Of a DNA stretch of 59,205 bases, positions 3,620-46,631 are shown piece after piece. This DNA comes from a virus. Taxonomy: Duplodnaviria; Caudoviricetes. The notes under the pieces are model-generated. The model was not told the origin of the DNA and did not search any database. It was given only the letters and a program-made list of their open reading frames with translations. The number at the start of each line of letters is the position of its first letter. Positions within the stretch are counted from its first letter, which is position 1. A program made the position numbers and the translations under genes. The DNA lies in the IMG/VR virus record IMGVR_UViG_3300026026_000125, positions 1 through 59,205 of that record; one strand, written 5' to 3'.

Positions 3620-3667
3620 AACAACATGTCAAAGAATTAATTTAACTCAAATTTAATAAAAAAATAT
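3620..3667 (+). repeat. ~47-bp direct repeat, copy 2
   Basis: One substitution and one extra A versus copy 1; begins exactly at the AAC of the cassette end. Confidence 0.9.
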
Positions 3668-19554: not shown

Positions 19555-20556
19555 ATGATAACGAAAAACATTCAAGTACCAACAGGAAATATTTGCGTAA
19601 TGAAAGGCGAAAAGGGTTTTATTGAGTTCCTTTCGATTGGCGATTACGGCAAAGATTCAAATATTAAAGCCGACTTTCTCGGAATAACAAGAGAATTAAA
19701 TGGTGTGCCAAATGGTGAAATAATGTCTTTGAGCGAAAAATGGGTAATAACCATAAGTACACAGTATGGCTGTTCGATGGGTTGTAAATTTTGCGATGTA
19801 CCGAAAGTTGGCAAAGGTTTAAATGCAACATTAAACGACCTTACAAACCAACTTATTGAAGGTTTAAAATTGCACCCTGAAATTGGAGCAACAAAAAGGC
19901 TGAACTTACACTATGCAAGAATGGGTGAACCTACATTTAATTTTGATGTAATTGAACACTCTAAACAACTGCATAAGATTGTAAAACCTTATATTGGTAA
20001 TAGTATGATACACCCAGTAATTAGCACTATGCTACCAAAAGTAAATAAAAGACTTATGGAGTTTTTGAACGAGTGGTGCGACATTAAAAACTACACTTAT
20101 AGAGGTGATGCAGGATTGCAATTTTCGATTAATAGTACTGATGACGAGCAAAGAAATGAAATGTTTAGCGGAAATACGTTACCTATAAATGACATTGCCG
20201 AAATTGGAAGACTGCTACCCGACCCAAAAGGCAGAAAATACGCTTTAAATTTTGCATTAGCTGACAACTATATTGTAGATGCTGAAAAACTTGCAATACT
20301 TTTTAACCCTAATAAATTTATGGTAAAAATTACTCCACTTCATAAAACGCAAAGTTGCGATGATAACGGAATAATAACAACCGATGGTTACGAAGCATTT
20401 ACCCCATATCAAAAAGCAGAAACCGACTTAAAAAACGCTGGATTTGATGTAATTGTATTTGTTCCAAGCTATGATGAAGATTTAGGTTTAATCACTTGCG
20501 GAAATGCTATCTTATCGGGCAGTATTCCAAAAGTTAAATTTACGCAGGTACTTTAA
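19555..20556 (+). CDS. RlmN/Cfr-like radical SAM enzyme
   Basis: ISTQYGCSMGCKFC, MGEP and C-terminal TCG motifs. Confidence 0.85.
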   Translation: MITKNIQVPTGNICVMKGEKGFIEFLSIGDYGKDSNIKADFLGITRELNGVPNGEIMSLSEKWVITISTQYGCSMGCKFCDVPKVGKGLNATLNDLTNQLIEGLKLHPEIGATKRLNLHYARMGEPTFNFDVIEHSKQLHKIVKPYIGNSMIHPVISTMLPKVNKRLMEFLNEWCDIKNYTYRGDAGLQFSINSTDDEQRNEMFSGNTLPINDIAEIGRLLPDPKGRKYALNFALADNYIVDAEKLAILFNPNKFMVKITPLHKTQSCDDNGIITTDGYEAFTPYQKAETDLKNAGFDVIVFVPSYDEDLGLITCGNAILSGSIPKVKFTQVL

Positions 20557-20570
20557 TCGGAGACGGTTTT

Positions 20571-20716
20571 ATGCTTGTGTATAACGAATGGTGGTATGGT
20601 TAGTTGGGGATTAGATACCGACAACCTATCCACCGAGTAGAAACTTAATAAATATAAAGAATGATGAATAACGAACAAAAACCCCAATTAACTATACCAC
20701 GTGTTAGTGGCAGTAC
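20571..20716. repeat. attC-like hairpin site
   Basis: Arms GTGGTATGGTTAGTTGGGG / CCCCAATTAACTATACCAC. Confidence 0.88.
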
Positions 20717-21320
20717 GGATTGGTCAGGGGACAAAAACAGTATTTACAAAACGCTTGGAGCTTCAAATCATACGGATAAAGAACGCCAAAGCGAAGATTA
20801 TTACGCAACCGAACCAAAGGCAGTTGAATTGCTTTTAGATTTAGAAGATTTTACAAACTTGTATGTTTGGGAATGTGCTTGTGGACAAGGGCATTTATCG
20901 GAAGCAATGGAGCAAAAAGGAATAAAAGTAAATTCAAGCGATTTGATTTTAAGAGGCTACGATAAGGCTTATTTATACGACTTTTTAAGCGAAGAAAACA
21001 AAGAGTGGAAAGGACATATTATTACAAACCCGCCTTATAAATTTGCAAAGGAATTTGTTTATAAAGCATTATCAATTGTTCCTGATGGTTGCAAAGTAGC
21101 AATGTTTTTAAAAGTACAATTTTTAGAAGGCAAAGCAAGGAAACAATTGTTTGAGATATACCCACCTAAAATAGTTTACGTTTCAAGTAGCCGATTATTA
21201 TGTGCTAAAAACGGAGAATTTGAACAAATGATTGCTGGCGGAGGTAGTGCAGTTGCTTACGCTTGGTATGTTTGGGAGAAAGGATATAAAGGTAAAACAG
21301 AACTACAATGGTTCAATTAA
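20661..21320 (+). CDS. N6-adenine (amino) DNA methyltransferase
   Basis: DYYATEP, WECACGQG, IITNPPY and YAWYVWEKG motifs. Confidence 0.88.
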   Translation: MMNNEQKPQLTIPRVSGSTDWSGDKNSIYKTLGASNHTDKERQSEDYYATEPKAVELLLDLEDFTNLYVWECACGQGHLSEAMEQKGIKVNSSDLILRGYDKAYLYDFLSEENKEWKGHIITNPPYKFAKEFVYKALSIVPDGCKVAMFLKVQFLEGKARKQLFEIYPPKIVYVSSSRLLCAKNGEFEQMIAGGGSAVAYAWYVWEKGYKGKTELQWFN

Positions 21321-22423: not shown

Positions 22424-22870
22424 CTATAAATCTTTCCTGACCAATAATATTAATTTGTCTTGATTGCATATTAAATTTTTATTATTTATGACAGCAAAAG
22501 GAATAGCTAATAAAGGAGTTATAGATTTCAATGAAGTATCTTTTGAAATTATTTTAGCGTGAATATGAAGTTTCCTTATTTCATCTAAAAGTTTCCATTG
22601 TTGATCGCTTTTTTCATTTAAGGCATCTAATTTTACTGATATTATATCGATTGATGAATTATCTGCTTTATTTGTAAACTGTTGTTTCATTTGTTCTTTA
22701 TACTCATTAAATTCTGGCCTTTTAATAGTTTGAATGAGTTGAGAATTAACATTATTAATGAACTCTTTATTATCAGAACGTCTGTTTTGGAAAACAGTTA
22801 TTCCCAATGTCATCAATATAGTTAATATTGCTGTTATCAGAACTCCTAATCTACTCATTTTCGCATTCAT
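22424..22870 (-). CDS. Membrane-anchored coiled-coil protein (lysis module)
   Basis: One N-terminal TM segment followed by a helical region. Confidence 0.6.
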   Translation of the reverse strand: MNAKMSRLGVLITAILTILMTLGITVFQNRRSDNKEFINNVNSQLIQTIKRPEFNEYKEQMKQQFTNKADNSSIDIISVKLDALNEKSDQQWKLLDEIRKLHIHAKIISKDTSLKSITPLLAIPFAVINNKNLICNQDKLILLVRKDL

Positions 22871-22871
22871 T

Positions 22872-23330
22872 TTATAATATGATTAATGTAACAACTATCA
22901 TTAAAGTAATCCCAAAAAGTGTCATTATTATAAAATTTTTACCATAAAAATTCAACCAAACAATATTGATATAATTACACAACAAAATTAAAATAGAAAC
23001 GCCTAGAAAAATATATCCAATAATAGGGGAATTACATAATAATGTATGCTGTTCCTTGCTGACGAATAATAGAACTATATCAAAAATACAATTTAATCCT
23101 ACAATTATTAATCCTGCAATAATTAATCTTTTTTCTATAAAAAATGATCGGCTGATATTTTTTTCTATATATCTTAATAATATAAATGCAGCCAGTAAAG
23201 AAATAAAAAAACCTCCATGTGTATTTAGAAAATAGAATTCCTTTAATTGCCTTGAAACATCAGCTAATTGAAAATAGTAAATACTAAAAACAATAAATAA
23301 AGGAATTCCTATTCTAATTAAAATATTCAT
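22872..23330 (-). CDS. Multi-pass membrane protein
   Basis: About five hydrophobic segments. Confidence 0.7.
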   Translation of the reverse strand: MNILIRIGIPLFIVFSIYYFQLADVSRQLKEFYFLNTHGGFFISLLAAFILLRYIEKNISRSFFIEKRLIIAGLIIVGLNCIFDIVLLFVSKEQHTLLCNSPIIGYIFLGVSILILLCNYINIVWLNFYGKNFIIMTLFGITLMIVVTLIIL

Positions 23331-23569
23331 TCTGGCGGATCGTCAGGTCTTGGTTTTGGACCACCATCTTGTTTTACTGTGCCCCCTGTAACGTTTGAAT
23401 CTTTTGCAAGAATTAATCCTATACCTCCAAAAATAGTTGTTAAGGTAGTCATGACTGATTCTTCAGTAAATTCACCTGATTTAAGTGCAAAAATAAATCT
23501 TACTATTCCTCCTAAAATAGCTAAAATTCCAAGAGAAGTCGTTTTCCAATTTGTTAAAATCGATTTCAT
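23327..23569 (-). CDS. Putative holin
   Basis: NWKTTSLG...two TM segments...GLILAKD, charged tail. Confidence 0.6.
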   Translation of the reverse strand: MKSILTNWKTTSLGILAILGGIVRFIFALKSGEFTEESVMTTLTTIFGGIGLILAKDSNVTGGTVKQDGGPKPRPDDPPE

Positions 23570-23579
23570 AATTTTGCTT

Positions 23580-24173
23580 TTAAAATGATTTATAAACAAT
23601 TTTTAATTTGCCTTTTTTTACATACTCATAAATATTCTGCGGAGAAACCTCCCAGGGATTAGGGAAAAATCCTGGTATACCTGCGTTGGCAGAAATTGCA
23701 AAAACTTCTCCGCAAGTATTCATTCTTTCAGATGCTCCCCCGGTAGACCCTATCCATAAATTATTAAATAACTTTAAAGCCTTAAATAAAATCTTAACCG
23801 GGAATGAAAATACTAAGCTGGGAATGTCGTAAGCGTTATCTATCAACGAATAAGCCTTGTCGGCTATCTTTTTTGTCTGTTTGTCGGTTAATTCTTCAGT
23901 GAATTCACAGAGAATGAATTTAGCTTTCGCCTCACCTATAGTAGTTTTAAAGTAATCCGTATCTTCCCATTTCTCTTTTCCAACTCCGTCTGCCTTTGCA
24001 TCAATCATCAAATATTCAAAAGGATTTGGTTGAGGATTAGGTGACTTTACAAAAGTATGAGACCAGTATAAATCCATTCCTGGACATTCTAATTGTTCAA
24101 ATGATGTGATTGCTTGGCCAAGTTTTCCACTTGAAAGACAAAGACCTACTTGTATTTTATTTTCTACGTTCAT
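23580..24173 (-). CDS. Permuted papain-like (YiiX/NlpC-P60-like) amidase/peptidase
   Basis: WSH...YD...CGE...SPQNI, with His before Cys. Confidence 0.7.
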   Translation of the reverse strand: MNVENKIQVGLCLSSGKLGQAITSFEQLECPGMDLYWSHTFVKSPNPQPNPFEYLMIDAKADGVGKEKWEDTDYFKTTIGEAKAKFILCEFTEELTDKQTKKIADKAYSLIDNAYDIPSLVFSFPVKILFKALKLFNNLWIGSTGGASERMNTCGEVFAISANAGIPGFFPNPWEVSPQNIYEYVKKGKLKIVYKSF

Positions 24174-24184
24174 AATTTATATTT

Positions 24185-26356
24185 TTAAGGCAGAACATAT
24201 TGCCGCTCATTGCCTCGCGCATAAGCACAAAATTTAGTTATATAACTATTTGTATCAAAGAATATTACGCCAACGCCTTTTGCTGATTGTAGCTGATTGA
24301 TTATTGAATAAGTTCCCTCTAGTCCACCCTTACTAATGTTAATATTATCTTGAAAATGACAATATTTATTACTATCACAAACAATTCCTATTGTGTGAGT
24401 AGGTGAAATGCTAGGGTCAGCCCAATACGACCCAGATGTAACAACTGAATCTATTGAATTAATTCTTTTAATAAGTTTACATAATGTACCTGTATAATAT
24501 GCATAAACATAATTAGCTGTATCTTGATACCTAACAATTATTCCTGCTCCTGTTGTCCCTTTAACATAAGAGATATTATTTAAAACAACATTTGAAGTAT
24601 TCAAATTTACAATTGCAATAGCTCTTCCATTAATTAATGCACTTGCATATATTTGTTGACCATTCGTATTGACTGTACCAGATTTATTTAACCAAGTTAT
24701 ATTATTCCCTCCTGCTCCAAGTCCAATAGATTCATTATGTCCTAATCCATTTGACGTTCTTGTGTCTATTATTGTTGGTGCTTTGCTTATTTTAAAATTT
24801 GTGAAGGTATTTGAAGCCAATGTGGAGAACTTACCTTGTAGTGTATTTGATATAATACCAACATCGGATACTGTTCCAGATAATTTTAAAACCTTATTAT
24901 AATATAATGAAATAGTAGTTCCTAATTTAGCAAGTTTCAATTCTCCACCATTCACATATGTAATAGATGTAGAAGCGGCAATATCAGAATAAACACCATT
25001 AACACATTTAATTAGTTCAACATTTTTTGTTGATGCGTTTTTATATGTTATAAATCCTAAAATATAATATTTCGGATTTACCTCATTATCTAAGTTCAAC
25101 ACAAAGCCACAGTTTGAACCAATAGCTAAAGTGATATTTGCATAAATTGCTAAATTGTCTGATAGATACATATTCGAAGTAGCCATTAGGCTAGGAATAT
25201 TCAATGTTTGTAAACTACCATCATCAAATATTACATCATCTGTACCCCCAAGGCAACGCACTTCCATCTGATCAGTTGTTGTAGTTCTTGTTGAAACAAC
25301 ATACTTAACATAAGTTGCACTATTAATAGGTGTTGAATAAGAATTCAAACTATTTACAAATGCAAATGTTGTCGTATTGCCGGCTAATTTTTTAGCCCAC
25401 ATACTTGCACGATACCATAAATTAAGTGTTGGTGTTACTTTATTCCAAAGTAAACGCGGTGAACCGGAAACAGGAGTAAAATCCTGTGCATAAGTTCCTG
25501 TATGACTATCTGAACTTTGAATCGTTGTCCCTACACCTACCTTTGTTAAAGAACTACACAAACCACCTGTATAGCTAGCTTCTAAACTTGTATCTGCTAA
25601 TAATTCGATCCCTGATGTTGTCGGATTTACATTACCAACTGATGAATTATATAAATCTTCAAAATTATCTGATATTAAAGGGATAGGATAGAATGTTTTC
25701 TTTGGTATTCGCACCCAATCAAAAATTGGAGTGCTCACAGAATAATTAGCTAAATATAGTTTTAAATTACTTGCTGTTACTGCATTCCAATTAGTAAAAT
25801 GCAATAATTTCCAATTATTATTTAAATAGGAAAAAATACATATTCCCGTGTCTCGTAATACAAATGCATCAATTCTAGGAGAATTATATTCTAAAGAATC
25901 AATCCAAGACCATGTATTTGAATTAACAAAAGTATAATTACCAAAATGTTCAGGTAAACTCTGAATCCCAGTCGGAGGCGTTTTTAAGGATGTATCCAAA
26001 ACTATTCTAATCTCACCAGGGCCCAATGTATAATTAAATTTAATTACCCTTCCTCTTGTTCTCTGTAAATTTATGTCATACCAATACATTGGGTCTGCAT
26101 AACTCACTTGTGTTTCATTAAATCTTAAAAATCCACCACTTATAGAAAGCCTATTATGTGTATCAATTGCTTTTCTTGTCAACAATGACGGATATGGAGA
26201 TATAGCAGAATTACCTATTGAACCAGCACTGATCGGAATATTAAATTCATCATCGAGAATATAATTTCCCGTTGTCACTGCTTGCCACCATTCAGTTTGA
26301 CCATTTAAAATAATAGGAATAAAAATAAGAATAATTAAATATAATATCTTTCTCAT
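24185..26356 (-). CDS. Beta-rich lectin/carbohydrate-binding-like protein with signal peptide (tail or receptor-binding-like)
   Basis: 723 aa, S/T/N/G-rich; MRKILYLIILIFIPIILNG-Q. Confidence 0.6.
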   Translation of the reverse strand: MRKILYLIILIFIPIILNGQTEWWQAVTTGNYILDDEFNIPISAGSIGNSAISPYPSLLTRKAIDTHNRLSISGGFLRFNETQVSYADPMYWYDINLQRTRGRVIKFNYTLGPGEIRIVLDTSLKTPPTGIQSLPEHFGNYTFVNSNTWSWIDSLEYNSPRIDAFVLRDTGICIFSYLNNNWKLLHFTNWNAVTASNLKLYLANYSVSTPIFDWVRIPKKTFYPIPLISDNFEDLYNSSVGNVNPTTSGIELLADTSLEASYTGGLCSSLTKVGVGTTIQSSDSHTGTYAQDFTPVSGSPRLLWNKVTPTLNLWYRASMWAKKLAGNTTTFAFVNSLNSYSTPINSATYVKYVVSTRTTTTDQMEVRCLGGTDDVIFDDGSLQTLNIPSLMATSNMYLSDNLAIYANITLAIGSNCGFVLNLDNEVNPKYYILGFITYKNASTKNVELIKCVNGVYSDIAASTSITYVNGGELKLAKLGTTISLYYNKVLKLSGTVSDVGIISNTLQGKFSTLASNTFTNFKISKAPTIIDTRTSNGLGHNESIGLGAGGNNITWLNKSGTVNTNGQQIYASALINGRAIAIVNLNTSNVVLNNISYVKGTTGAGIIVRYQDTANYVYAYYTGTLCKLIKRINSIDSVVTSGSYWADPSISPTHTIGIVCDSNKYCHFQDNINISKGGLEGTYSIINQLQSAKGVGVIFFDTNSYITKFCAYARGNERQYVLP

Positions 26357-27051
26357 TGTAAGTAATATATTGTTCTTTCTATTAACCCCCCCGTAAGCAA
26401 TCGAAACATAACTATATTAACTGCCCCCGCCGTATCATCATATTCAGAACTACCGGAAGCTTTTTTACAAGGGCCATAATTAATTGTATATGAATTTCCG
26501 GTACCTATTAATATATAGGTTATTGTTGATCCTGGCTTTGCCCCTGTATCAAATGAAATTGATACAATAGTACTTCCTGAAATTGTATCTTGTCTATGAA
26601 TACTTTTTGTTTTTGAAAATGTTAAAACTATTAAGTTTGTTATATTATTAGTTGTTGTATCAGCTATTTCATAATCATACAATACTTTCAAAGCATTTGT
26701 CAAATCATTTGTTGAAAGGTTTTTACCGGTAACCTTATCAACTTTCTGATCTAATTTCCAAAGTGGTGTAAGACCTGTAGATTTATTGGTAGTATCAATA
26801 TTACTACTTGCATTACCACCTACTTTAACCCATTTATTTTGAATAGAACTCCAATAAATTAAAGTATCGTTATAATTGATAATACTGGTTTTATTTCCAG
26901 TAATTATATTCGTTAACGATGTAGTTTCTGTTTTTACAAAAGTAGTATCATAAATTCTATCCAATTTATAAATATAAAGAGGATAGTGTGCCTGACAAAA
27001 TCCCAAGATTGGAATTATTAACAAAAATAGGATTATGAATATTTTTTTCAT
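26353..27051 (-). CDS. Tail-fibre-like protein with signal peptide
   Basis: KVDKVTGKNLSTND fibre motif; MKKIFIILFLLIIPILGFC-Q. Confidence 0.6.
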   Translation of the reverse strand: MKKIFIILFLLIIPILGFCQAHYPLYIYKLDRIYDTTFVKTETTSLTNIITGNKTSIINYNDTLIYWSSIQNKWVKVGGNASSNIDTTNKSTGLTPLWKLDQKVDKVTGKNLSTNDLTNALKVLYDYEIADTTTNNITNLIVLTFSKTKSIHRQDTISGSTIVSISFDTGAKPGSTITYILIGTGNSYTINYGPCKKASGSSEYDDTAGAVNIVMFRLLTGGLIERTIYYLQ

Positions 27052-27062
27052 GAGTTTAATTT

Positions 27063-28553
27063 TTATAATCGTAATCGTTTGTAATAAATATAATACATCA
27101 ATTTGGGGTGAGAACCTGAACTAGCTGTTATATATGCTGTATTTATATTAATATCTTTACTTATCAAATTTGATTTTAATTCAGTTGATCTGTCTGAATT
27201 GTGAATTAAAAGATCATCTATTTCTTCCGTACTCATAAAATATACAAAATCCTCTCCGTATGTAGCTCCTATTGCTTGTGAATTTGCAGAAATTGTTATA
27301 AATCCTGAAATTCCTCCTGTAGCATCATAATTTGTCATTCCTGTAATCCATTTTTTCTTAATTATGATTTTATCAATTATTATACAATAATTTGGAACAC
27401 CGGTGATTATTTTTGTTATAGTACCATTAACTATTTTTGCTGAATCTAATTCTACACTATCTATGTATTCACTAACTATTAAATTTAACCCATAATCTGC
27501 TTCAAGATTTAATAATAATACATTTACATAATTTGTTGCTGTTTGACCACTATTTGTAGCAACAACAGTATATAATCCAGCATCCGTTGCATTAGTAACA
27601 GAATCATAAGAAAAAATACTACTTTCATAAAACCATTGGAAAGTTGTTCCACTTTTATTACTCGTTGCACTTAAAGTAACAAAAGAATTAGTAGCACTTA
27701 AATTTCCGGTTAAATTTGTTGCTGAAATCGTTAAAGTACTCAATCCTGCACTTGCTAATTGACTTAATGATTTTTTTATTCCTAAATTATTATAAAAATA
27801 TAATTCGGTTGATTTTGCATAAATACCTGAATTTAATGTAGACTGATCTTTTGAAAAAGATACTCGAGAAGAATCATAATGAGAATCTATAAATAAATTA
27901 CTTGAATCAATGGTTATTCCGTTACCGTACCCATTACTTTTTAATCCAAATAATTCTAGTTTTTTTGTGCTAAATTTTATATCTTCCCATAATTTATAGT
28001 TCCCAAGAAAAAAATAACTACTCGATGAAACTAAAGGATCAATAAATATATTATCTTGAATTGAATTGGTAGAATCACCTAAACTTATTTTGTTCCCATT
28101 AATATTTATACCTGAATTTGAACCAGTCCAATAATTCTTTCCTGATTTTTTCCCCCAATATGTAGTATCTGTTGCATCAATAGTTTTTGCAAGACTATTG
28201 ACCCATGATTGAAGTTGATTATGAATTAAAAGCGTATCCCACTTTGTTAATATTTTATTAGTATCGATTCCTAATTTTTGTATTCCGATTTTTATTAGCC
28301 CAGACCCATCTATTATCAATGAATCATGATGGTCATATGCCAATAGATGAGCATACATTGTATCATGTGCTAATTTTTTTAAAATATACCCGGAGACATA
28401 TCCAAAACCACGTAAATATACAGAGTCGGCCTCCATAGTTTTTTTGGATTTTATGAAATAATTAGCAGTAATATGGTCTTTTGTCAAGTCATTATTTTGA
28501 CCTGATAAATTAAAACACATTACTGCTAATATTATAAATAAAATATTTTTCAT
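27063..28553 (-). CDS. Fibre/Ig-like domain protein with signal peptide
   Basis: TFQWFY...AGLYTVVATN Ig-like segment; MKNILFIILAVMCFNLSG-Q. Confidence 0.6.
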   Translation of the reverse strand: MKNILFIILAVMCFNLSGQNNDLTKDHITANYFIKSKKTMEADSVYLRGFGYVSGYILKKLAHDTMYAHLLAYDHHDSLIIDGSGLIKIGIQKLGIDTNKILTKWDTLLIHNQLQSWVNSLAKTIDATDTTYWGKKSGKNYWTGSNSGININGNKISLGDSTNSIQDNIFIDPLVSSSSYFFLGNYKLWEDIKFSTKKLELFGLKSNGYGNGITIDSSNLFIDSHYDSSRVSFSKDQSTLNSGIYAKSTELYFYNNLGIKKSLSQLASAGLSTLTISATNLTGNLSATNSFVTLSATSNKSGTTFQWFYESSIFSYDSVTNATDAGLYTVVATNSGQTATNYVNVLLLNLEADYGLNLIVSEYIDSVELDSAKIVNGTITKIITGVPNYCIIIDKIIIKKKWITGMTNYDATGGISGFITISANSQAIGATYGEDFVYFMSTEEIDDLLIHNSDRSTELKSNLISKDININTAYITASSGSHPKLMYYIYYKRLRL

Positions 28554-28554
28554 A

Positions 28555-29589
28555 TTAATAGGATGCAGGAGTTATAGTAGAAACTGCGGCACCCGCATAA
28601 TCTGTTGCTGTTAAAATCCATTGTGTTGCTGAAACACATGTAGCTTTAAACATTACATTGGCCCCTATAGTAGCCTGTTTATTTGTCACAGTATTATTAA
28701 GATAAACTGTTCCGGATTGAGCAGCGGCAACACGCAACCTACATCCATTTGCCCCCACAAAACCGGTTATCACTAACCCTACAGTTGAAGAACTTGCCGC
28801 AGGGAGCATAAGTTTATATGTAGCGCCCCCAGAAGTAACAGTTACAAATTGAGTAACTGCTGAAAGCAAAGCCCCTGCTGAAGTGGTATCTGCTGCTGCT
28901 GTAGCAGTTGTAACCAATTGTGGAATAGCATTGGCAATGGTTAGCCCATTAAATGTCCCATCGGATGTTATGTTTCCTATTCCTGTCATAATTCCTGTGG
29001 TGCTAATGTCCCAATCGCTGGAATTTACGCCTACAGTTTGACCATTATCTCCAATTGTTAATGCGGTAGTTCCAACTAAAGCCTGACTTGTTCCAAGATT
29101 GACCCCTGCTCCTGAAGTAATTAATCCAGTCGATGTGACTTTTCCCGTAGAATCAACATTAAATTTACTCGCCGAATTTACCTGTACATCTATGCAATGT
29201 AAATCGGTTGTTGCATCCAAAATAATATTATCACCATCTTTTGTATTGGTAATAGCCCCTACAGTCGTTAATGTACCTGTAAAATTTGCAGATGAACTAA
29301 TAGTTTGACTATTTATAGTTCCTGCCGTAACAACTTTTCCAGTTGAGTCTACGCTAAACTTACTAGCCGAATTCACAGAAAGGTTTAATGGTTTTAGCAC
29401 TGCGCCCATATCTACTGTGAATGTGTCTCCATCATTAGTAATATCTCCGATAGTTACCACTGAATCAGAAAATATTTTAAAAGCGCTATACACATCGTAT
29501 TGTGTAGCGAATTTATTTGGACTTTTTTTAAGTTGTCCAAAACTTATTAAGTTGATTAATAGCAATATTGAAATAAATAATGTTTTCAT
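28555..29589 (-). CDS. Fibre-like structural protein with signal peptide
   Basis: Repeat VNSASKFxVDSTGKV x2; MKTLFISILLLINLISFG-Q. Confidence 0.6.
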   Translation of the reverse strand: MKTLFISILLLINLISFGQLKKSPNKFATQYDVYSAFKIFSDSVVTIGDITNDGDTFTVDMGAVLKPLNLSVNSASKFSVDSTGKVVTAGTINSQTISSSANFTGTLTTVGAITNTKDGDNIILDATTDLHCIDVQVNSASKFNVDSTGKVTSTGLITSGAGVNLGTSQALVGTTALTIGDNGQTVGVNSSDWDISTTGIMTGIGNITSDGTFNGLTIANAIPQLVTTATAAADTTSAGALLSAVTQFVTVTSGGATYKLMLPAASSSTVGLVITGFVGANGCRLRVAAAQSGTVYLNNTVTNKQATIGANVMFKATCVSATQWILTATDYAGAAVSTITPASY

Positions 29590-29608: not shown

Positions 29609-30478
29609 TTAAATTATACTACCTGTTCTGTACATAGGTTGAATCCTTCTGAAACTTAATGCCCTGAGATCAGCATATAATTGATTTACCTCAACTTCCG
29701 TTAATTCCCATTCAGTTTTATTTTTGTTTAGTTTATACCATTCTTTTAATGTGTATTTTTGATAAATTTGGAATATTTTATTATCAATAACTTCCAGTGC
29801 TCTTGAATCAAAATTCTTAAGGTTTTCAATAGTGATCGTGATTTTTCCTTTTGTATCTACATAAACTGGTTCGGCTTGCCAATATGTAGTACTGGATGCA
29901 GGGGCATGACCAGTATTTGCAGCTTGCAAAGATTTATAAATAATCCCAACATCTACTACAAAATCATTTGCAGCATATGCTTGCGCGGCCACATAAGGGG
30001 GTATTGTGGTATCAATTTCTTGTTTTTCCCAATATGTAGGACTTGATGATGGAGTATGGCCTATATTTCCGGCCTGAAGTGATTTATATGTATATCCATC
30101 GTAATACACATAAACTGCTATTGGGTATGTTGTCCCAGCAACATAAACAGGTGATACCGGACCATCGTCAAAAAGAAATGAGTTAACAAGTTCTTTACTT
30201 AAATATCCCAATTGTCTGAATACATTATCGGCTGCTTCTTTTAGGAATTTTCTGAAAACATTCTTTTCATCATTTGATAAAGCATATCTATCAAATGCAG
30301 AATTTCCTTTATCATCCATGGCGTATTTTGAGCCAATGGACGTGTATTCTTTTACGACTTCAAATATGTCATCGATTTTATGTTGTAAAATTGCATAGCT
30401 TGGAGCGTCAACGTCTACATCGCCCTGTCCTGTGGTAACAAGACTTTCTATGTTTTCAATAAAGGTTATGTATGCCAT
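29609..30478 (-). CDS. Structural protein with two CBM5/12-like modules
   Basis: YKSLQAGNIGHTPSSSPTYW and YKSLQAANTGHAPASSTTYW. Confidence 0.65.
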   Translation of the reverse strand: MAYITFIENIESLVTTGQGDVDVDAPSYAILQHKIDDIFEVVKEYTSIGSKYAMDDKGNSAFDRYALSNDEKNVFRKFLKEAADNVFRQLGYLSKELVNSFLFDDGPVSPVYVAGTTYPIAVYVYYDGYTYKSLQAGNIGHTPSSSPTYWEKQEIDTTIPPYVAAQAYAANDFVVDVGIIYKSLQAANTGHAPASSTTYWQAEPVYVDTKGKITITIENLKNFDSRALEVIDNKIFQIYQKYTLKEWYKLNKNKTEWELTEVEVNQLYADLRALSFRRIQPMYRTGSII

Positions 30479-30482
30479 AATT

Positions 30483-31121
30483 TTATGTATTAAGTAATAA
30501 TTGAATCATTTGAATATATTCACCTTTAATAATATTTGCTAAATCAGTCCTTCCGGTTATTATCATAACTTTTTGAGCACACAGAGAAGATAATACCGGG
30601 ACCAAATTATCAGGAACCTGATCGGGGATCATTATTTTAATATAGGCCAAATCAGGGCTTAGATTCACAGTGTCATCCTGTACTGTATAACATTCCAAAA
30701 GTTTTTTATTTGTTGTAAGATCTTTTTTAATAACCACTACTGGTTTAGCAAAACCTCCCCTGGTATATTCATTTTTCTGGACTGCATATAAAGGATGTGA
30801 TTCTGATATTACTTGATTTATTGGCCTCTCCCAACACGGAAATTTAAGATATGCCAATTTCAAATATTCAGTTGGCAGTTTTATTGTAGCAATATTGTCA
30901 GAAATAGAAACCAAACCTGTAATATTCAATTTTGATAATGGCAACAAATGGATTGGCACGGTTAATTCAAGTTCTTCAGTACATTCATCCAAGAGTATAT
31001 CTATATATTCTTCTATAGGCTTCGCATTTACATTTAGTGCAGAGACAATAAGGCCTTGTCCGAATGATGCGTATTCATCCAGTTTTACAGTAACTTTTTG
31101 TATGATAGTTTTTCTGTCCAT
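30483..31121 (-). CDS. Head-tail adaptor-like structural protein
   Basis: IKLPTEYLKL motif, size and position. Confidence 0.55.
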   Translation of the reverse strand: MDRKTIIQKVTVKLDEYASFGQGLIVSALNVNAKPIEEYIDILLDECTEELELTVPIHLLPLSKLNITGLVSISDNIATIKLPTEYLKLAYLKFPCWERPINQVISESHPLYAVQKNEYTRGGFAKPVVVIKKDLTTNKKLLECYTVQDDTVNLSPDLAYIKIMIPDQVPDNLVPVLSSLCAQKVMIITGRTDLANIIKGEYIQMIQLLLNT

Positions 31122-33031: not shown

Positions 33032-33049
33032 AGTTTTTAATTTATTTTG

Positions 33050-33121
33050 TTGCGAGGGCGGGATTCGAACCCGCGACCTCCAGATTATGAGTCTGGCGAG
33101 CTACCACTGCTCTACCTCACT
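33050..33121 (-). tRNA. tRNA-Met(CAT), initiator-like
   Basis: Cloverleaf AGTGAGG-TA-GAGCAGTGGTAGCTC-G-CCAGA-CTCATAA-TCTGG-AGGTC-GCGGG-TTCGAAT-CCCGC-CCTCGCA-A; no encoded CCA. Confidence 0.92.
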
Positions 33122-33127
33122 ATAGTT

Positions 33128-34561
33128 TTATGCTTTCTTACTAAAGAAACAATGAGCCTCTGGATATTGCAAATAATTAGTTGAACATTCTTTCATAATC
33201 ACTCCGATAGAATTGCTTTCACCAGTTGCCTCAAAATCAAGTTCTTTCCTTTGCATAGTAAGTCTTGATGATTTATTAACATATTCCAAATCTAATGCCG
33301 CGCCTTTATTAGCCCAGCCCATTTCTGAGAATAAAGGATGATGGATTACGTCAAATATTCCAAATTCAGTAATCCATTGGGTAAATTGAATTCCCCATTC
33401 TTCTTTGGTCTGGGTCTTCATATAGGTTTTATTATTAAGTTGAAATTCCATTAAGGATTGAACCAAATCAGACCCTGCAAATAGAGTCTTTCTTGACGAT
33501 CCTGAGTTTCCAACAAATAATTTTTTAAAATAATCGGTCATATTCCTTACAGATATAATCCTATCACTTCCCCCGGTTCCATATTCAACATTATTTATAA
33601 TATTCCAAGAAAATCCATCCATTGTATATCTCTTGGTGCTATCTTCCACATTGGTGACAATACTCTTTTTGCTCCACCAGTAAGCACATTCAATTTCAGC
33701 ACGTATCTGCAATGCCATCATTCTTTCATAATCTGCCAATTCCCACTGAACTTCTTTTGCCTGATCTTTATTGAAATTACTCATCTGGACCATACGTAGA
33801 AAATACTGACAATAATTTTCATCAGGTTCAGGTAAAATCTGAAATGGAGATGTTTTAGCGGCAAGTTCATCTTTAGCTGGCGCTAAGCGATACAAAACTA
33901 CAGCAGATGTAAAATTAGGCATACAATAAACAGCGGCTTTTGTATTAAGTCCCTTAATTCCATTTAATGGAGAAACTTCAATAGCGCTGTTGTCTACTTT
34001 ATGTACATAAAAAACAATATCACTGGTTGAAGTAAGGCTACTTGCGGCAACAACTAACAAGGGTGATATTGCAATGTCCCTCATTATAAATGTATCATCT
34101 TTCTGCCATAGAGTTTGATCGGTTACTTTGATCCAAAACTTACTTAACCCATCACCTGATGCATATGTATATTCTTTTGCCGGTACACTCGATGTACTTC
34201 CGTTACCACTAACTGTATCGTCTATCGCATCAAACAAAGCGGGACTTGCGACTCTGTAATATTTCTTTATAAAACTATTACATGGTGTCGATTTTTTTAT
34301 TTCCCTTATAATTGTATCTAATGGAAACCGTGATGGATTATGAATACAAACCTCTTTATCAATATCCTTCAGGTTTAATCCCGGAACTAATTCATCAGTT
34401 GCCAATACTTCTACGGGATCTCCCGAAATAGCTACCCCTTGGGCAGCAAACAAGACAACTCCCGTGGCAAATAAAGCCGGAAGGAAACTAAACAAAACAA
34501 ACATGCATATGGAAGCTAAAAGTAATTTAGCTATTAAATTGGTTGTAAGATACTTTTTCAT
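33128..34561 (-). CDS. Major capsid protein (HK97-like) with hydrophobic N-terminal leader
   Basis: Downstream of scaffold; NYCQYF, EIECAYWWS, TMDG and FGIFDVIHHPLF pattern of podoviral major capsid proteins. Confidence 0.8.
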   Translation of the reverse strand: MKKYLTTNLIAKLLLASICMFVLFSFLPALFATGVVLFAAQGVAISGDPVEVLATDELVPGLNLKDIDKEVCIHNPSRFPLDTIIREIKKSTPCNSFIKKYYRVASPALFDAIDDTVSGNGSTSSVPAKEYTYASGDGLSKFWIKVTDQTLWQKDDTFIMRDIAISPLLVVAASSLTSTSDIVFYVHKVDNSAIEVSPLNGIKGLNTKAAVYCMPNFTSAVVLYRLAPAKDELAAKTSPFQILPEPDENYCQYFLRMVQMSNFNKDQAKEVQWELADYERMMALQIRAEIECAYWWSKKSIVTNVEDSTKRYTMDGFSWNIINNVEYGTGGSDRIISVRNMTDYFKKLFVGNSGSSRKTLFAGSDLVQSLMEFQLNNKTYMKTQTKEEWGIQFTQWITEFGIFDVIHHPLFSEMGWANKGAALDLEYVNKSSRLTMQRKELDFEATGESNSIGVIMKECSTNYLQYPEAHCFFSKKA

Positions 34562-40588: not shown

Positions 40589-42565
40589 TTATTGATTTTG
40601 TTGATTCAGCATTTTCATTGCCTGTGGGTTGGCTCCTTGCTGAATTGATTGAACCTGTTCCGGTGTTGGTGGTTGGCCTTGTCCCTGTAAAGATTCTTTT
40701 TGTTTGTTTAACGCATCTAAAAGTTTATCTGAAAATGGCATTGCGCTATTTTCCAGGTACATTTCAAGACTTATTAATCCTGCCTGTAACAATCCTGAAA
40801 GTTTATCGTCAATAAGTTGTCTGTAAACAGGTGTATTAACAGCTTTACTTCTAACCAAATCATATTCCATTTTACGAATATCTTCAGGAACATATTTCTT
40901 AATATTACTTTTATAGGCATTCCCGGCTACTGAAATATATCTCTCAGTATCATAAAACTGCATGATCATTTTTAAAGTCTTATAATCTCTTTTTTCAAGA
41001 AACTTTTCAAAGATAGTCATATGTTTCAAGGTGTTCAGGGTCGAATTTTGTGCTTCTTGAGCGTATAAAGATGCAGGCGCTCCGGCCCCAATATTTTTTC
41101 CTTGTATGGCCGAATGAACACCTGAAATATCTTGTGTAAATTGTAATTGGCTTGCAAGGATTTCATAAAGGCCAATATTGGTACTTTTTTCTGAAATTTG
41201 TCGGGGAGGTTCCACTCCGGCTTTAGGTGTATAAACTATTACAGCATCAAATTTTGTCCATTGGTCGGCAAAAGTTTCAGGCGTCATGTCTTCTGGAATA
41301 GCAGAAGCAGGTACAAGTAATGCTCCCTTTGCAGAAGCAGCAATAATAAAATCCTGAAGCATCATGTTCCTATTGATGGATTTTTGAGGACTTATCAAAT
41401 CTTCAACAAATCCTTTTACCTTTCCATCAATTAAAGGTGCATATGTAATTATAAATGGGTGTTCCTGGTGTTCGAAAGGAGATTCACCTTCCCATAGAAT
41501 ATCTCCCGTGGGAGTCATATATTTCCCATACCAGAATTGTTCTTTTATTTGTTGTGCATTTACGAGTGCCCATAATTCTTCCGGTACATTATTTTTTTTA
41601 TAAACTTCTATCCTTTGTTTATTTAATTTATCAACATCAGAAAGGCTTATGTTTACAATATTTTCCTCACCGGTCAGTTCATCATGGACATAAGTACGCC
41701 ATTCACTTTTAAGTTCCCAGGCTTCAATAACCCTGCATTTATCAGTAGGTGGAATCAAAAAACTAAGATTATCAATTTCCGTAGTATCCAAACCTTTTGT
41801 TAAAATAAGAGGTTCTTTTATAATGTATTTATACCAATTTTTTATTTTTTCTTCATCAGCTTTGGTAAGTGAAAATGAAGAAATAATATCGTCCAATTGG
41901 CAATCTATGATCTGACCAATACATCTTAAATCGGTTCCTCTTATGTCCGAAATATCAGAATTAAAGAATATCCTGTGGGGATTGCAATTTTCAATAAAGA
42001 TATTTTTTTCATTGCGTTCCTTAATGTATTTATATCTCATTTTCTGAATAGCAACACCTGTTAATGTAAACATTTCATACATCTGGGAATCTATCAAAGG
42101 CAATGAGTTTAATTGTCCCACAGCCTGGATAGCATTGCTTAATATTTCGGCCTCATCCGCACATTCTTTAGTTCTTGAGGTAACTACAATTTGGGTTTCG
42201 TTATTGAGAAATTGTCCTACCAGGTTATTTATGATAGGTTGTATAATGTTTTGAGTTAAAGGTTGGCGACCCTTTCTTCTGATATGGTATTCTTCGGTGC
42301 AATATTTTTTAATTTCCGGATCATAAATAACATCATTCCATTGATTGCCCTGCGCAAAATTCCTGTTTCTTCTTGCTCTTGTCCTGAAATCAGATAAAGC
42401 TTCCCAATAGTTTTTATACCTGTTTAAATCTTTAAGATTTTCAGTTTTGTTGGCAGACTCAGAAATAGCATTAATATTTTTAGAGACTGCCTTTTTTGAC
42501 ATGTATTTCTTGGGATTAAATCTTAAATCCCTGGCTGTTATTTTATTTTTCATTATATTTTTCAA
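40589..42565 (-). CDS. Portal protein (P22-like)
   Basis: FAQGNQW, PLTQNIIQPIINNLVG, DLISPQKSINR and ISGVHSAIQG motifs; Q-rich tail. Confidence 0.88.
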   Translation of the reverse strand: MKNIMKNKITARDLRFNPKKYMSKKAVSKNINAISESANKTENLKDLNRYKNYWEALSDFRTRARRNRNFAQGNQWNDVIYDPEIKKYCTEEYHIRRKGRQPLTQNIIQPIINNLVGQFLNNETQIVVTSRTKECADEAEILSNAIQAVGQLNSLPLIDSQMYEMFTLTGVAIQKMRYKYIKERNEKNIFIENCNPHRIFFNSDISDIRGTDLRCIGQIIDCQLDDIISSFSLTKADEEKIKNWYKYIIKEPLILTKGLDTTEIDNLSFLIPPTDKCRVIEAWELKSEWRTYVHDELTGEENIVNISLSDVDKLNKQRIEVYKKNNVPEELWALVNAQQIKEQFWYGKYMTPTGDILWEGESPFEHQEHPFIITYAPLIDGKVKGFVEDLISPQKSINRNMMLQDFIIAASAKGALLVPASAIPEDMTPETFADQWTKFDAVIVYTPKAGVEPPRQISEKSTNIGLYEILASQLQFTQDISGVHSAIQGKNIGAGAPASLYAQEAQNSTLNTLKHMTIFEKFLEKRDYKTLKMIMQFYDTERYISVAGNAYKSNIKKYVPEDIRKMEYDLVRSKAVNTPVYRQLIDDKLSGLLQAGLISLEMYLENSAMPFSDKLLDALNKQKESLQGQGQPPTPEQVQSIQQGANPQAMKMLNQQNQ

Positions 42566-45500
42566 TTATATCATTCATTAACATGTCACGTTCTTTATTT
42601 AGTAAATCAATATATTTTTGATCTTCAACTTTTTTCTTTGGCGCCATTACATCCTGATCAAAATTCTTAAGCATTTCATCAATGGCTTTCCACTTTTTGT
42701 AATTAGGGGTATTCATTTCGTCAAGCATCTTAACAGGATCATTGGTTTTTTCTAATGCTCTATATCTACTTTGAAAATTATCATGCCATTGGTTTACTTT
42801 TTTAAATTCTTCATATAAAGCACCTTTTGATTTATTTCTATAAAAGGCATTTATAAAAGGTATACTACCAATATCAAAACCTTCTACCTGGTCAGGTGTA
42901 TTTTTTTCATATTCTTTAGTCTTTGCCCATGTAGCTTTAGAAATTGATGTTACTGCATCGGACAATATTGTACCAAGTCCGCCTCCATATTGTCTTATCA
43001 TAAAATCCCATGCAGCCGGATTAAGGTCCCATGGATCGGAAATTTTTTCGCCTTCTTTGTTGACATTGGTTCCCTGTAATCCACTTCCATGTTCAGTCCA
43101 TAAACTTTGAGTAAGTCCTATCAAAACAGGATTTGTGTTATTGAGATATTTTTCAACATCAGGAGTATAGGACTTCTGTGTTTCAGTAAATGGCTCTTTA
43201 TAAATTCTTCTTCCGGCATAGTCTTTATTTTCCCAAAGTTGTACAAGTGGTTCAACTATTGATATTTGCCTTAAAACGTATTTGCCGAACTGAAGTTCTT
43301 TCTCGTCTTTATTCCACATTGTACCCATTTCTACGGGGGACATGGCATTTTGTATATTCTCCAATGCATCCATGATGGCCGTTTCTTCGTCTATTTTCCC
43401 ATGTATCAGATCATGAGAAATAACACCAAAAGCATTCCACATCCTATAACCTTGTGCTATCGGAATAGATAGGTTATGATTTCCAAAACCTATCACCATA
43501 TTATTATAACGGGTATATTTGTTGGGTTTTTTATAATCTTTCTCTTTATCCCTGTCTTTATTATAAAGATCGTATAAATATGTTGTTGCATATCCAAAAG
43601 CAGCCAATTGTAACCCTGTTGCAAGGAAATATTTATAAGGATGATTCTTAGCCATTACCGCCTGTTTGGTTGCACCCTGAATCGAAGCATTAAAAAAATT
43701 CACAAATGAACCTATCGTAGAGGACCAGTTGCCCTTGCGATCAAAGTTTACCGTAACTTCTTTAGCCGCATTGATAGATTCAGGAATAGATGCTCCGTTT
43801 TCCCTTGCAGAAATATAAGCAGCATAACGAGAAGTAGTCTCTAAATGTCCGGTCAGATAATCAACAGCTTTCCATACCTTCATTGCATTTACTACAGCGT
43901 GTCTTGTGGGATGTTGTAGCGAATTAGTAAGTTTGTCAATATTTGTGGCGATATCTTCAATGCTCTGAAGAGAAGTGCTTCCTGTTTTGCCGCCACCGGA
44001 CGTAAACTCATCCCAATACTTCATATATTTACCAGACTCCTTACCTAATTCACCCCTGGTTGTTTGAGCTAAAGCAATAGGCCAGTTTTTTGCAAACAAA
44101 GCAGCCTCTTTAGCGTCTCTTTGAATAAATGTCGAAGCAATACCGTCCTCGAAGTCTCTAACCGGGTTCCTAACTCCAAATGTAACACTATAAGCGGTTC
44201 TTAATTTGGCAAGTGAACGGGTAAGATAGTTAATAACCGGAACTGGGTTTGTTTTGTATTGAGAATTTATCTCATTGGCTATATTTGCGTCAGGGAAAAT
44301 AACTTTGTATTTCTGGCCTCCAAGATATGCATCAACTTCATGTTGGTTGCTTAAAGATGTAGGTTTTCTCAATTGATAATCTTTATTGATATCATTGGTC
44401 AACTTATAGTCGGCATCTTGTAATTCTTTAATATTGCCAAGATTGTTCATTTCCGGGTTGCCTGCATTATCTATATTTCCGGTGATTTCAAATACATCTC
44501 CTTTTGGGTCTATGGTAACCTCAATCTGATTTTTATCAGGCGAAGTCAAATAACTTATATTTTTAAGATGAAATAAATCTTTACGGTCTTTATTTAACAT
44601 AGCAAGTTTAACAGCAGCTTGCTTAACCCTGTTTTTTTCACCCCAAAGAATTGCAGTTTGAGCCATATTGTACATATTAGCTAAAGGATTATCGGCTAAA
44701 GAAGTACGTCCTTTGGCTTCTTTGGGCATCGCTAAACCTGATACGCCTTTACCCGCATAATCTTGTTCTAATTCTTGATATTCTTTTTCCCAACCTCTCA
44801 ATGGAACATAATATTTCCAATCCCTTTCTTTAATGACATTTGATATTCCCGAGTATCTGCCATAAGAAACCCATTTATTCATTATGTCATTAGTGGCCTT
44901 ATTGATATTTGACCAGAGATTATCTATTGCTTCTTTTGGTATTCCCTGTTCAAAATTCTGCACAAGTTCGTTGGCCTCCTTATCAGTCATCCCTGAAAAA
45001 TTAGTATCTTCGGGTATTGCATCTCCTATTTTATCTGGATTTTTTTCATAATACAAAGAGGCATTACGTTCCGGTGCATGTTTGGCAATTAAATATCTCA
45101 AGATACTTTTTTTATCGAGTTCTTTAACTTGTGAATCAAATTCCTCCTGGGTAATTTCACCTTTTGATAATTGACCTTCAAGATCAACATATTTGTCATC
45201 ATTAAATTCTTTTCCATATCTTCTCAATACTGAAACATCTTTAATAATAGGTCTGAATTCCTTACGATCAAACTTTTTAATTGCTTCGTTTGCACGGGAA
45301 TTTTTTTGATTATGCGCCCAATCAATATTTGATGCATCGGTAACAATAAGATTATTTTTTTCCTGAAGTTTCCTGACATTTATAGTTTCATCCTGTAGGT
45401 TCTCACGTATTTTCCGAAGTAGTTTTTTAGTATCGGTTATTTCTTCTTTATCTGGAACGGTTTTACTAAATGCAGGAATATCGTTGTCTTTTATGGTTTT

Positions 45501-46082: not shown

Positions 46083-46083
46083 T

Positions 46084-46629
46084 TTATTTCTTTAAATCAT
46101 TGAAATATTTTTCCATAACATCGATCCCATGTTTCTTTTTTATTTCTTCAGGAAATTTTCTGGCTTCTGAAAATGTGAAAGGTTTATTTTTAAAGTTACC
46201 GCCTATACCGGTATAATCTCCGATAACAATATTTTCAGGATCATTGCTTTGTTTCAACACAGTTGGCCACGCAGGAACAGTGGCAAGTTTTTCATAATTT
46301 GGTGTAAATTCCTGTGGTAAATATGTCCGGCTTAATACCGGCCTTTCTTCTTCATCGCGGGAAATAGTCGTAAAATCGCTTTCATAAATTCCACCTGTTG
46401 GGGCTTTATCCGGTGATTTAGGCAGTTTGCTTACTAGATCATCGATACACTTATGGCATCCGTTCTTAATCATATCCTGCACTTCTAATTTGTATTTTGC
46501 AGGAATAATTGAAACATCGCCGTTAGAATTTCTTAACACGAGTTCGCCATTTTCGGCCTCAACTTCTATTGTATGTTCTGATTTTGGTTTTTCTTTAAAA
46601 AGATCGCCAACAAATTGATGTTTTTCCAT
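46084..46629 (-). CDS. Hypothetical virion-associated protein
   Basis: IEVEAENGELV motif. Confidence 0.65.
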   Translation of the reverse strand: MEKHQFVGDLFKEKPKSEHTIEVEAENGELVLRNSNGDVSIIPAKYKLEVQDMIKNGCHKCIDDLVSKLPKSPDKAPTGGIYESDFTTISRDEEERPVLSRTYLPQEFTPNYEKLATVPAWPTVLKQSNDPENIVIGDYTGIGGNFKNKPFTFSEARKFPEEIKKKHGIDVMEKYFNDLKK

Positions 46630-46631
46630 GA

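Follow-up and report, generated by a model that had tools for sequence, protein, structure and literature searches.

The window analysed here is the whole of IMG/VR virus record IMGVR_UViG_3300026026_000125 (Duplodnaviria; Caudoviricetes), a linear stretch of 59,205 nt with a G+C content of about 30% and a CheckV completeness estimate of 76%. It contains four consecutive genes, which we named g1 to g4, whose products each start with a short, basic-hydrophobic leader directly followed by glutamine (Gln). An original prediction, based on the DNA letters alone, had described them as tail-like genes carrying signal peptides followed by Gln, and we found the four consecutive minus-strand open reading frames (ORFs) at positions 24185-29589 with the N-termini quoted there. 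The positions of the genes, their leaders and the neighbouring features are given in Table 1.

Table 1. Positions of g1-g4, their leaders and neighbouring features in the 59,205-nt window
Feature	Positions	Strand	Basis
g1, 723 aa	24185-26356	-	ORF
g1 leader-coding segment, 19 codons (...ILNG, then Gln)	26300-26356	-	ORF, hydropathy filter
g2, 232 aa	26353-27051	-	ORF
g2 leader, residues 1-19 (...LGFC, then Gln)		-	ORF
g3, 496 aa	27063-28553	-	ORF
g3 leader-coding segment, 18 codons (...NLSG, then Gln19)	28500-28553	-	
g4, 344 aa	28555-29589	-	ORF
g4 leader-coding segment, 18 codons (...ISFG, then Gln19)	29536-29589	-	ORF, hydropathy filter
Two structural-module genes upstream of g4 (289 aa, 212 aa)	29609-31121	-	ORFs; 212-aa protein is phrog_22135
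Major capsid protein, SU10 type (operon anchor)	33128-34561	-	Pfam PF17236, E 3.4e-25; phrog_26635, phrog_1328
P22-type portal gene	40589-42565	-	Family match (PHROGs, Pfam)
Cluster downstream of g1: 197-aa unassigned protein and three small membrane proteins	22424-24173	-	ORFs

All four leaders are 18 or 19 residues long, with one or two Lys/Arg residues within the first three residues (positions 2-3) and an uninterrupted hydrophobic core of 11-15 residues that lacks acidic residues; cores of this length are too short for stable membrane anchors. For g1, g2, g3 and g4, respectively, the residue at position -1 is G, C, G and G, and that at position -3 is L, G, L and S. Leu at -3 of a signal peptidase site is tolerated but not typical. 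According to a rule-based call (features of the n-, h- and c-regions, the -3/-1 positions and Gln at +1), the four leaders fit the Sec/signal peptidase I (SPI) type with an exposed Gln, as had been proposed: each of them has a basic n-region, an h-region and, on the two sides of the predicted cleavage site, a small residue (-1) and Gln (+1). As regards a lipoprotein signal, Gln follows the leader in g1, g3 and g4, and g2 (...LGFC-Q) is ambiguous, with Phe where the lipobox consensus has G/A/S. The starts of the genes abut or overlap the preceding gene, with gaps of 19 nt for g4, 1 nt for g3 and 11 nt for g2, and an ATGA overlap for g1.

The combination of leader and Gln is real and goes beyond chance. 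A crude hydropathy filter flagged 6 of the 77 non-overlapping ORFs of at least 50 aa; besides g1-g4, these were a multi-pass membrane protein and the small ORF at 3666-3929. When six flagged ORFs out of 77 were simulated, four or more stood in a row with a frequency of 0.0008. Moreover, Gln accounts for 3.6% of the residues in the proteins of the window, and the probability that four fixed positions are all Gln by chance is about 2e-6. The exposure of Gln by SPI, invoked in the original prediction as an established rule for Bacteroidota, is indeed published: the accessible text of one paper describes this Q-rule as a property of SPI substrates in Bacteroidetes, together with a periplasm-facing cyclase (PMC5837995), and that of another reports that it stabilises extracytoplasmic proteins (PMC10653852).

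Structure prediction, which had been suggested as a check, yielded folds of the phage appendage type for g4 (fold matches to phage spikes, fibres and baseplate proteins, and a predicted homotrimer) and for g1 (a chain of lectin-like domains and carbohydrate-binding modules, CBMs). The g4 protein is laid out as a leader (residues 1-18), Gln19, a predicted trimeric fibre in which repeats of the 'SSDWDI' type occur and, at the C-terminus, a conserved beta domain (about residues 215-344). Its AlphaFold2 (AF2) model has a mean predicted local distance difference test score (pLDDT) of 71.8. The top Foldseek match of this model in the PDB is 9ny6_C, the capsid spike of Pa223, with an E-value of 6e-6 at a TM-score of only 0.22, and further PDB matches are a tailspike, baseplate proteins, CBA120 TSP4 and T4 gp10. 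In BFVD, 209 viral models matched g4 at E ≤ 0.001, several of them under the names tail fibre, baseplate gp9/gp10 or Mtd N-terminal domain. When residues 19-344 were modelled in three copies, the chains were predicted to intertwine along nearly their whole length; each of the three runs gave a homotrimer score of 0.87 (best of the three controls, 0.00), with a contact agreement of at least 95% and a partner pLDDT of at least 87. The mark used for this score was reached by 20 of 30 solved pairs and by 1 of 23 single chains, a calibration made on two copies and not three. These predictions support the view that g4 forms a homotrimer.

A sibling protein (P0001) is the same fibre as g4 with one extra repeat of about 100 residues. 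Searches of cultured-phage DNA and proteins with the locus, with g4 and with a typical member of the g4 family returned nothing, and a PDB sequence search with the g4 profile returned nothing meaningful; the best family match, Big_8 (E 0.0028), was below threshold. With the patterns used, no cellular relative of the C-terminal domain of g4 was detected in 185,579 species genomes, and therefore g4 does not look like a member of a cellular adhesin family. In unrelated viral contigs, genes of the g4 family are located directly after the capsid gene (L004, L007, L014 and L023, by PHROGs; in L003 the upstream gene has no match), and g4-type genes are also found downstream of a tape-measure protein (L017) and between a portal-like gene and the capsid gene (L010).

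The g1 protein is laid out as a leader (residues 1-19), a jelly-roll resembling ConA and legume lectins (28-236), a CBM (247-386), a sandwich resembling CBM66 and the C-terminal domain of glycoside hydrolase family 32 (GH32; about 390-525) and a poorly modelled repeat (530-723); the mean pLDDT of its AF2 model is 70.2, with poor values for residues 528-723. The first domain resembles legume-lectin, ERGIC-53 and GH16-type folds (Z 15-16). A GH16-type enzyme was considered for this domain, but no E-x-D-x-x-E motif was seen by eye and it was treated as a lectin. The second domain matches the porphyran-binding CBM 8xmz_B (Z 17.8; root-mean-square deviation 1.8 over 130 residues), and the third resembles CBM66 and GH32 C-terminal sandwiches. 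The top Foldseek match of g1 is the central fibre of Mycobacteriophage Douge (8zdp, E 6e-8). An exhaustive search identified 1174 relatives of g1 at E ≤ 0.001, whereas a word-indexed search found almost none; a scan of viral contigs for close g1 relatives and a PDB sequence search with g1 gave nothing meaningful, and a family match to Melibiase_C (E 0.0083) was below threshold. Genes of the g1 family lie between the capsid and head-tail adaptor genes in three contigs (L028, L029 and L039). In the last of these, a glycosyltransferase gene (L039:8406-9587; phrog_2170, E 5e-39) is located two genes downstream of the leaderless g1-family gene, and there may be a link between this lectin-like family and phage-made glycans.

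The other two proteins are less easily classified. In g3, the leader (residues 1-18) and Gln19 belong to a conserved N-terminal part of 135 residues, and an 84-residue middle domain (272-355) is set in a variable remainder. The sibling protein P0048 (689 aa), from the 59,024-nt contig that also encodes P0001, is 93% identical to g3 over residues 1-135 and 75% identical over 272-355, the rest being unrelated. Structural rows from the Atlas, which we use as leads only, point to small viral proteins for the C-terminal third of g3 (TM-score by row 0.67-0.68) and, more weakly, to the Ig/PKD domains of Bacteroidota adhesins; a viral-contig scan for close relatives of g3 and a PDB sequence search were without meaningful result. 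The g2 protein has a leader (residues 1-19) and an orphan body rich in a D-S/T-aliphatic motif, and no relatives or assignable fold or family were found for it in PHROGs, Pfam, NCBIfam, PDB sequences or viral contigs. No significant family was found for any of g1-g4 in PHROGs, Pfam or NCBIfam, where all matches were below threshold. The 'fibre-, Ig- or lectin-like bodies' of the original prediction thus hold as fibre-like for g4 and lectin/CBM-like for g1, while an Ig-like body in g3 is indicated by weak leads and none of these labels could be given to g2.

Most members of the g4 family appear to have a leader. Among 44 g4 relatives, a strongly hydrophobic N-terminal window is present in 34 and about 36 look leader-like by eye; the remaining eight include two labelled partial, two on contigs no longer than about 1.1 kb and one (P0043) resembling a membrane anchor. 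Likewise, the ORF has a leader-like N-terminus at each of the 24 loci in viral contigs that gave a g4-type match; the residue after the leader is Gln in some of them and Ala-Asp/Asn in others, and some leaders begin a few residues in from the first start codon. Leader ends of the AXA or SFG type persist across dozens of divergent g4-type relatives.

A closer comparison was possible with L027, a syntenic metagenome contig of 4.9 kb that was the sole find of one metagenome scan. Between the g3 leader and that of its homologue on this contig, 5 of the 18 codons are changed, one synonymously and four from one hydrophobic residue to another, and Gln19 is retained through a synonymous CAA/CAG change; residues 20-135 contain 29 synonymously and 8 non-synonymously changed codons. 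In the slot of g4, L027 encodes a 179-aa protein with a different leader that has the same FGQ end, followed by the 14 mature residues of g4 and then by a body without similarity to that of g4. These comparisons indicate that the leaders are functional and that selection acts on their features and not on their sequence. Conserved heads with swapped bodies are thus seen both for g3 and P0048 and for the 179-aa protein, and P0001 is the g4 fibre with an added repeat; this mosaic pattern is typical of receptor-binding proteins. Among the conserved N-terminal heads, no docking domain of a known type was identified.

The gene order agrees with the claim that g1-g4 are inside the virion operon. The window encodes an SU10-type major capsid protein, a P22-type portal and a large terminase (PHROGs, Pfam), and g1-g4 are on the same strand as the capsid and portal genes and downstream of both. 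The capsid gene is followed by five small structural-module genes and then by the g1-g4 block, and a cluster of membrane-protein genes lies on the other side of this block from the head genes. We infer from its position and hydrophobic segments only that this is a lysis cluster; neither the 197-aa protein nor the rest of the cluster had a family match, even at E ≤ 10, in PHROGs, Pfam or a further family search, and an endolysin identity for the 197-aa protein is unsupported at any threshold. The nearest cultured relatives are three Bacteroides phages, with capsid proteins 27-30% and portals about 33% identical to those of the window, and the Ralstonia GP4-like and Burkholderia Bcep22-like short-tailed phages are more distant relatives. 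The phage of the window is itself an uncultured, short-tailed one. Because of these relatives, the low G+C content and the Gln rule, its host is very probably a member of Bacteroidota.

The 212-aa structural-module protein (30483-31121) and gp13 of Bacteroides phage BS-TP4 belong to the same PHROG (phrog_22135; pairwise E 4e-6). In BS-TP4 the next gene encodes gp14, a leaderless protein of 2645 aa that has no hydrophobic N-terminus; the slot of g1-g4 is thus occupied by this 2645-aa protein in the cultured phages nearest to the window. Directly upstream of g4, the 289-aa protein (29609-30478, minus strand) contains two copies of a motif of about 20 residues, Y-K-S-L-Q-A-x-N-x-G-H-x-P-x-S-S-x-x-Y-W, which matches phrog_6278 and phrog_14646 and which we take to resemble short carbohydrate-binding repeats. 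Viral-contig scans revealed no close relatives of the 289-aa protein or of the capsid protein, and PDB sequence searches with the 843-aa, 212-aa and 384-aa proteins of the window gave nothing meaningful.

Several known systems share part of the features of g1-g4. Cellulophaga phage phi18:3 (NC_021794, Pachyviridae), a cultured podovirus of Bacteroidota, has three consecutive late genes, gp085, gp086 and gp087, whose products have a basic-hydrophobic leader (ending in ...YS, ...SA and ...NA, respectively) followed by Gln. These genes are located directly upstream of small membrane proteins and an annotated endolysin, as g1-g4 lie beside a membrane-protein cluster. The products are recorded as virion structural protein, structural protein and tail protein, with the note 'annotation based on experimental MS/MS proteomics analysis' (MS/MS, tandem mass spectrometry), and they are three of the 12 proteins that carry the MS/MS note in the 30,000-71,443 stretch of NC_021794. 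By their N-terminal modules they are assigned to PHROGs with the names tail fiber protein and pectate lyase. As far as literature searches show, the phi18:3 leaders have not been discussed in print.

The leaderless fibres and tailspikes of short-tailed phages, including BS-TP4 gp14 in the same slot, have in common with g1-g4 their trimeric or beta-rich bodies, a conserved N-terminus combined with a swapped distal part, and a late operon position; they differ in starting without a leader, and they fold in the cytoplasm. We take P22 gp9 to be an example of this type. Solved appendages resemble g4 (Pa223 capsid spike 9ny6, CBA120 TSP4 N-terminal part 7rej and T4 gp10 2fl8; E 6e-6 to 0.1) and g1 (Douge central fibre gp20, 8zdp) at the level of the fold, with low TM-scores (0.13-0.25) and 9-16% identity, values that indicate a resemblance of building blocks and not membership of a family; to our knowledge, none of these four appendages carries a leader. 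Spanins, signal-arrest-release (SAR) endolysins and exclusion lipoproteins of the T5 Llp type are phage proteins that are exported late and are not virion parts. These are small lysis or exclusion factors, whereas g1-g4 are proteins of 232-723 aa with fibre or lectin folds, three of the four lacking a lipobox; a spanin or lysis role for g1-g4 was rejected because of their size and fold.

In the open-access literature that was searched, we found no paper describing exported virion fibres or other exported virion proteins. The nearest published precedent is a set of genes in prophages of Porphyromonas gingivalis, for which SPI cleavage is likewise predicted to expose Gln and which were read as an adaptation to the secretion pathway of Bacteroidota (PMC10367356, Matrishin et al. 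2023). They differ from g1-g4 in that they belong to temperate phages and have no assigned function; the accessible text of that paper proposes them to be modifiers of the host outer membrane and claims no fibre or lectin fold or virion role for them. New here are the contrast between the g4 family, mostly with a leader, and the g1 family, mostly without; the L027 protein, in which the leader and body are swapped and the anchor is kept; and the cluster in which four of four leaders follow the Q-rule.

General O-glycosylation in Bacteroidota concerns extracytoplasmic proteins that carry the motif D-(S/T)-(A/I/L/V/M/T), which is given in the accessible text of PMC8550257. This motif occurs 6 times in g2, where 1.18 are expected (z 4.95), and 9 times in g3, where 2.68 are expected (z 4.2); it is at chance level in g4 (4 versus 2.47) and g1 (3 versus 2.5). 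For g1-g4 together the count is 22 versus about 8.8, and for 29 other proteins of the window it is 29 versus about 35. Host glycosylation may be an extra reason for export, which we treat as a weak lead.

From the evidence above, g1-g4 appear to be late phage proteins of a type that serves in host recognition, and they carry a leader for the host Sec/SPI pathway: g4 is read as a trimeric fibre, g1 as an array of lectin and CBM domains, g3 as a mosaic protein and g2 as a small orphan. Export of the four proteins is likely; for their attachment to the virion the odds are about even. The reading that we favour, and to which we give an even chance as a whole, is that g1-g4 are exported, mature in the periplasm and join the particles at lysis. 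The original prediction of export with periplasmic or post-lysis maturation is thus supported in part: the leader features, the selection on them, the appendage-type folds of g4 and g1 and the phi18:3 analogue speak for it, and we infer export, cleavage and pyroglutamate formation from them.

According to textbook descriptions of tailed phages, every virion part is assembled in the cytoplasm. In the proposed route, each of the four proteins would cross Sec unfolded, SPI would cut before Gln, and a host cyclase would turn the new N-terminal Gln into pyroglutamate. Folding, and trimerisation where it applies, would take place in the periplasm, possibly with the addition of host O-glycans, and docking would be mediated by the short conserved segment that follows the cleavage site. 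The particles would be built and filled with DNA in the cytoplasm and would meet these appendages only once the inner membrane is breached at lysis. That completed particles can acquire spikes or fibres outside the cell is classical knowledge for P22 and T4. A wider proposal, to which we give somewhat less than an even chance, is that assembly is split over two compartments: the capsid and tail core would be made in the cytoplasm, and the host-recognition gear would be delivered through Sec, capped by pyroglutamate and perhaps glycosylated, and would dock by a short N-terminal peptide after the holin breach. In that same tentative proposal, pairs of leader-bearing and leaderless members of the g1 family would mark repeated evolutionary switches between the two routes.

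Several observations weigh against maturation in the periplasm followed by attachment to the virion. A hydrophobic N-terminus, in some cases doubtful, is present in at most 13 of the 149 best representatives of the g1 family, so that the function of this family works without export. The two closest relatives of g1 differ in this respect, a leader being present in P0049 (40% identity) and absent from P0050 (38%), and among the g1-family copies in the six viral contigs listed none was flagged as having a leader-like N-terminus. The leader is therefore a lineage-specific addition, made in a family whose members usually act from the cytoplasm. The likeness to phi18:3 is one of analogy and not homology, since no sequence similarity between gp085-087 and g1-g4 could be detected, and MS/MS of purified particles can pick up envelope proteins that co-purify. 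In the leader class pooled over the fetched loci, the O-glycosylation motif is enriched only 1.3-fold (65 versus 49.9; control motifs about 1.0), it is not enriched in gp085-087 of phi18:3, and a strong enrichment is confined to g2 and g3. Disulfide folding was dropped as a rationale for export, since the cysteine counts of the mature proteins (9, 1, 1 and 3) are unpaired. The 'tail-like' label is uncertain too, because the g4 and g1 families adjoin the capsid gene in other phages; g1 and g4 could be head fibres or decorations. Finally, with an estimated completeness of 76%, the record may lack further fibre genes.

Some of these observations fit the main alternative, which we consider rather unlikely: g1-g4 are exported but never become virion parts, and act in the envelope of the infected cell or free after lysis, for instance by masking receptors or glycans (which would exclude superinfecting phages or keep progeny off debris) or by binding or loosening surface polysaccharide. 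The leaders serve this explanation equally well, g1 is a pure carbohydrate-binding array without an obvious docking domain, and the presence of the leader in some g1 relatives and its absence in others is what one would expect if the place where these proteins act becomes accessible on lysis with or without export. Phages are known to export exclusion proteins, T5 Llp being an example. The accessible text on the P. gingivalis prophages also reads their Q-rule genes as modifiers of the host envelope (PMC10367356). However, the 14-residue mature N-terminus that is kept while the body behind it is exchanged, and likewise the g3 head with its 93% conservation ahead of a diverged body, resemble a docking module for a common partner, which is the pattern of virion receptor-binding proteins. 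In addition, g4 is predicted to be a long trimeric fibre of the virion type, the genes have a late position in the structural operon, a further fibre or spike being named by neither PHROGs nor Pfam anywhere in the window, and the phi18:3 analogues are annotated as found in particles.

An improbable alternative is that the N-termini are not export signals at all, but act as a membrane tether on the cytoplasmic face or in assembly and are removed by a phage protease, or that the true starts lie downstream. The capsid protein of the window begins with MKK and about 32 mostly hydrophobic residues, its match to the capsid profile starting at about residue 49, and the capsid protein of BS-TP4 (L026:19809-21251) also begins with a basic-hydrophobic stretch. 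Capsid proteins cannot be exported, and therefore a hydrophobic N-terminus is not in every case a sign of export in this lineage; the capsid stretch may act as a tether to the membrane or as a scaffold-like segment inside the particle. Similarly, 'signal peptides' are described on the major capsid proteins of P. gingivalis phages, with removal by the prohead protease suggested (accessible text of PMC10367356). The public gene call for g3 (P0047, 485 aa) begins at Met12 and omits most of the leader. Nevertheless, the capsid stretch of about 32 hydrophobic residues does not have an n-h-c structure, whereas the leaders of g1-g4 are short, with a basic start, a small residue at -1 and Gln in four of four. 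The sibling g3 homologue P0048 was called with its full leader, the packing of the genes suits the long forms, and the leader features persist over dozens of divergent relatives. Leaders of this kind can be missed by automated annotation, as the shorter call for P0047 illustrates.

The third alternative is that g1-g4 are cell-surface appendages, as already offered in the original prediction, and reach the outer membrane through the type IX secretion system (T9SS) or as surface lipoproteins. It is highly improbable: Atlas rows for g3 list clusters of Bacteroidota SprB/PKD/T9SS adhesins as leads only (TM-scores of only 0.20-0.28) and the ...LGFC end of the g2 leader is readable as a poor lipobox, but no NCBIfam T9SS C-terminal sorting domain (type A or B) was found in g1-g4 at E ≤ 1 with HMMER, the filters of which drop most matches above about 0.1, three of the four proteins have Gln and not Cys at +1, and the C-terminal domain of g4 is without a cellular relative in the genomes searched.

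If export followed by addition at lysis is a routine path for phage fibres and lectins, this would change how receptor-binding proteins are expressed and engineered, as the leader would be removed and the protein would fold in the periplasm, with a pyroglutamate N-terminus and possibly with host glycans. It would likewise affect the reading of virion proteomes and of 'structural' annotations, and host-range prediction for the Bacteroidota phages of gut, ocean and lake, and it would make the phage dependent on the Sec pathway, SPI and glutaminyl cyclase of its host. The question is testable in the cultured system of Cellulophaga baltica and phi18:3.

Some other features of the window deserve mention. 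The small ORF in the early region flagged by the hydropathy filter (3666-3929, plus strand; 87 aa) has a leader ending in ...FICASC and no NCBIfam match; its product is possibly a lipoprotein and, as such, a candidate exclusion factor. A tRNA-Met (CAT) gene is located at 33049-33121 (minus strand), between the capsid gene and the next structural gene. Upstream of the portal gene, at 42543-53981 (minus strand), two giant 'polyvalent' proteins are encoded, one of 2449 aa with an ART-PolyVal ADP-ribosyltransferase domain and one of 1179 aa with an LPD38 domain. As in Bcep22-like phages, these two are probably virion proteins that are ejected or internal. At 19555-21320 (plus strand), a 333-aa protein with a C-x3-C-x2-C motif typical of radical-SAM enzymes is followed by a 219-aa protein with an NPPY motif typical of N6-adenine methyltransferases, both motifs being identified by eye, and the two proteins may form a DNA-modification pair.

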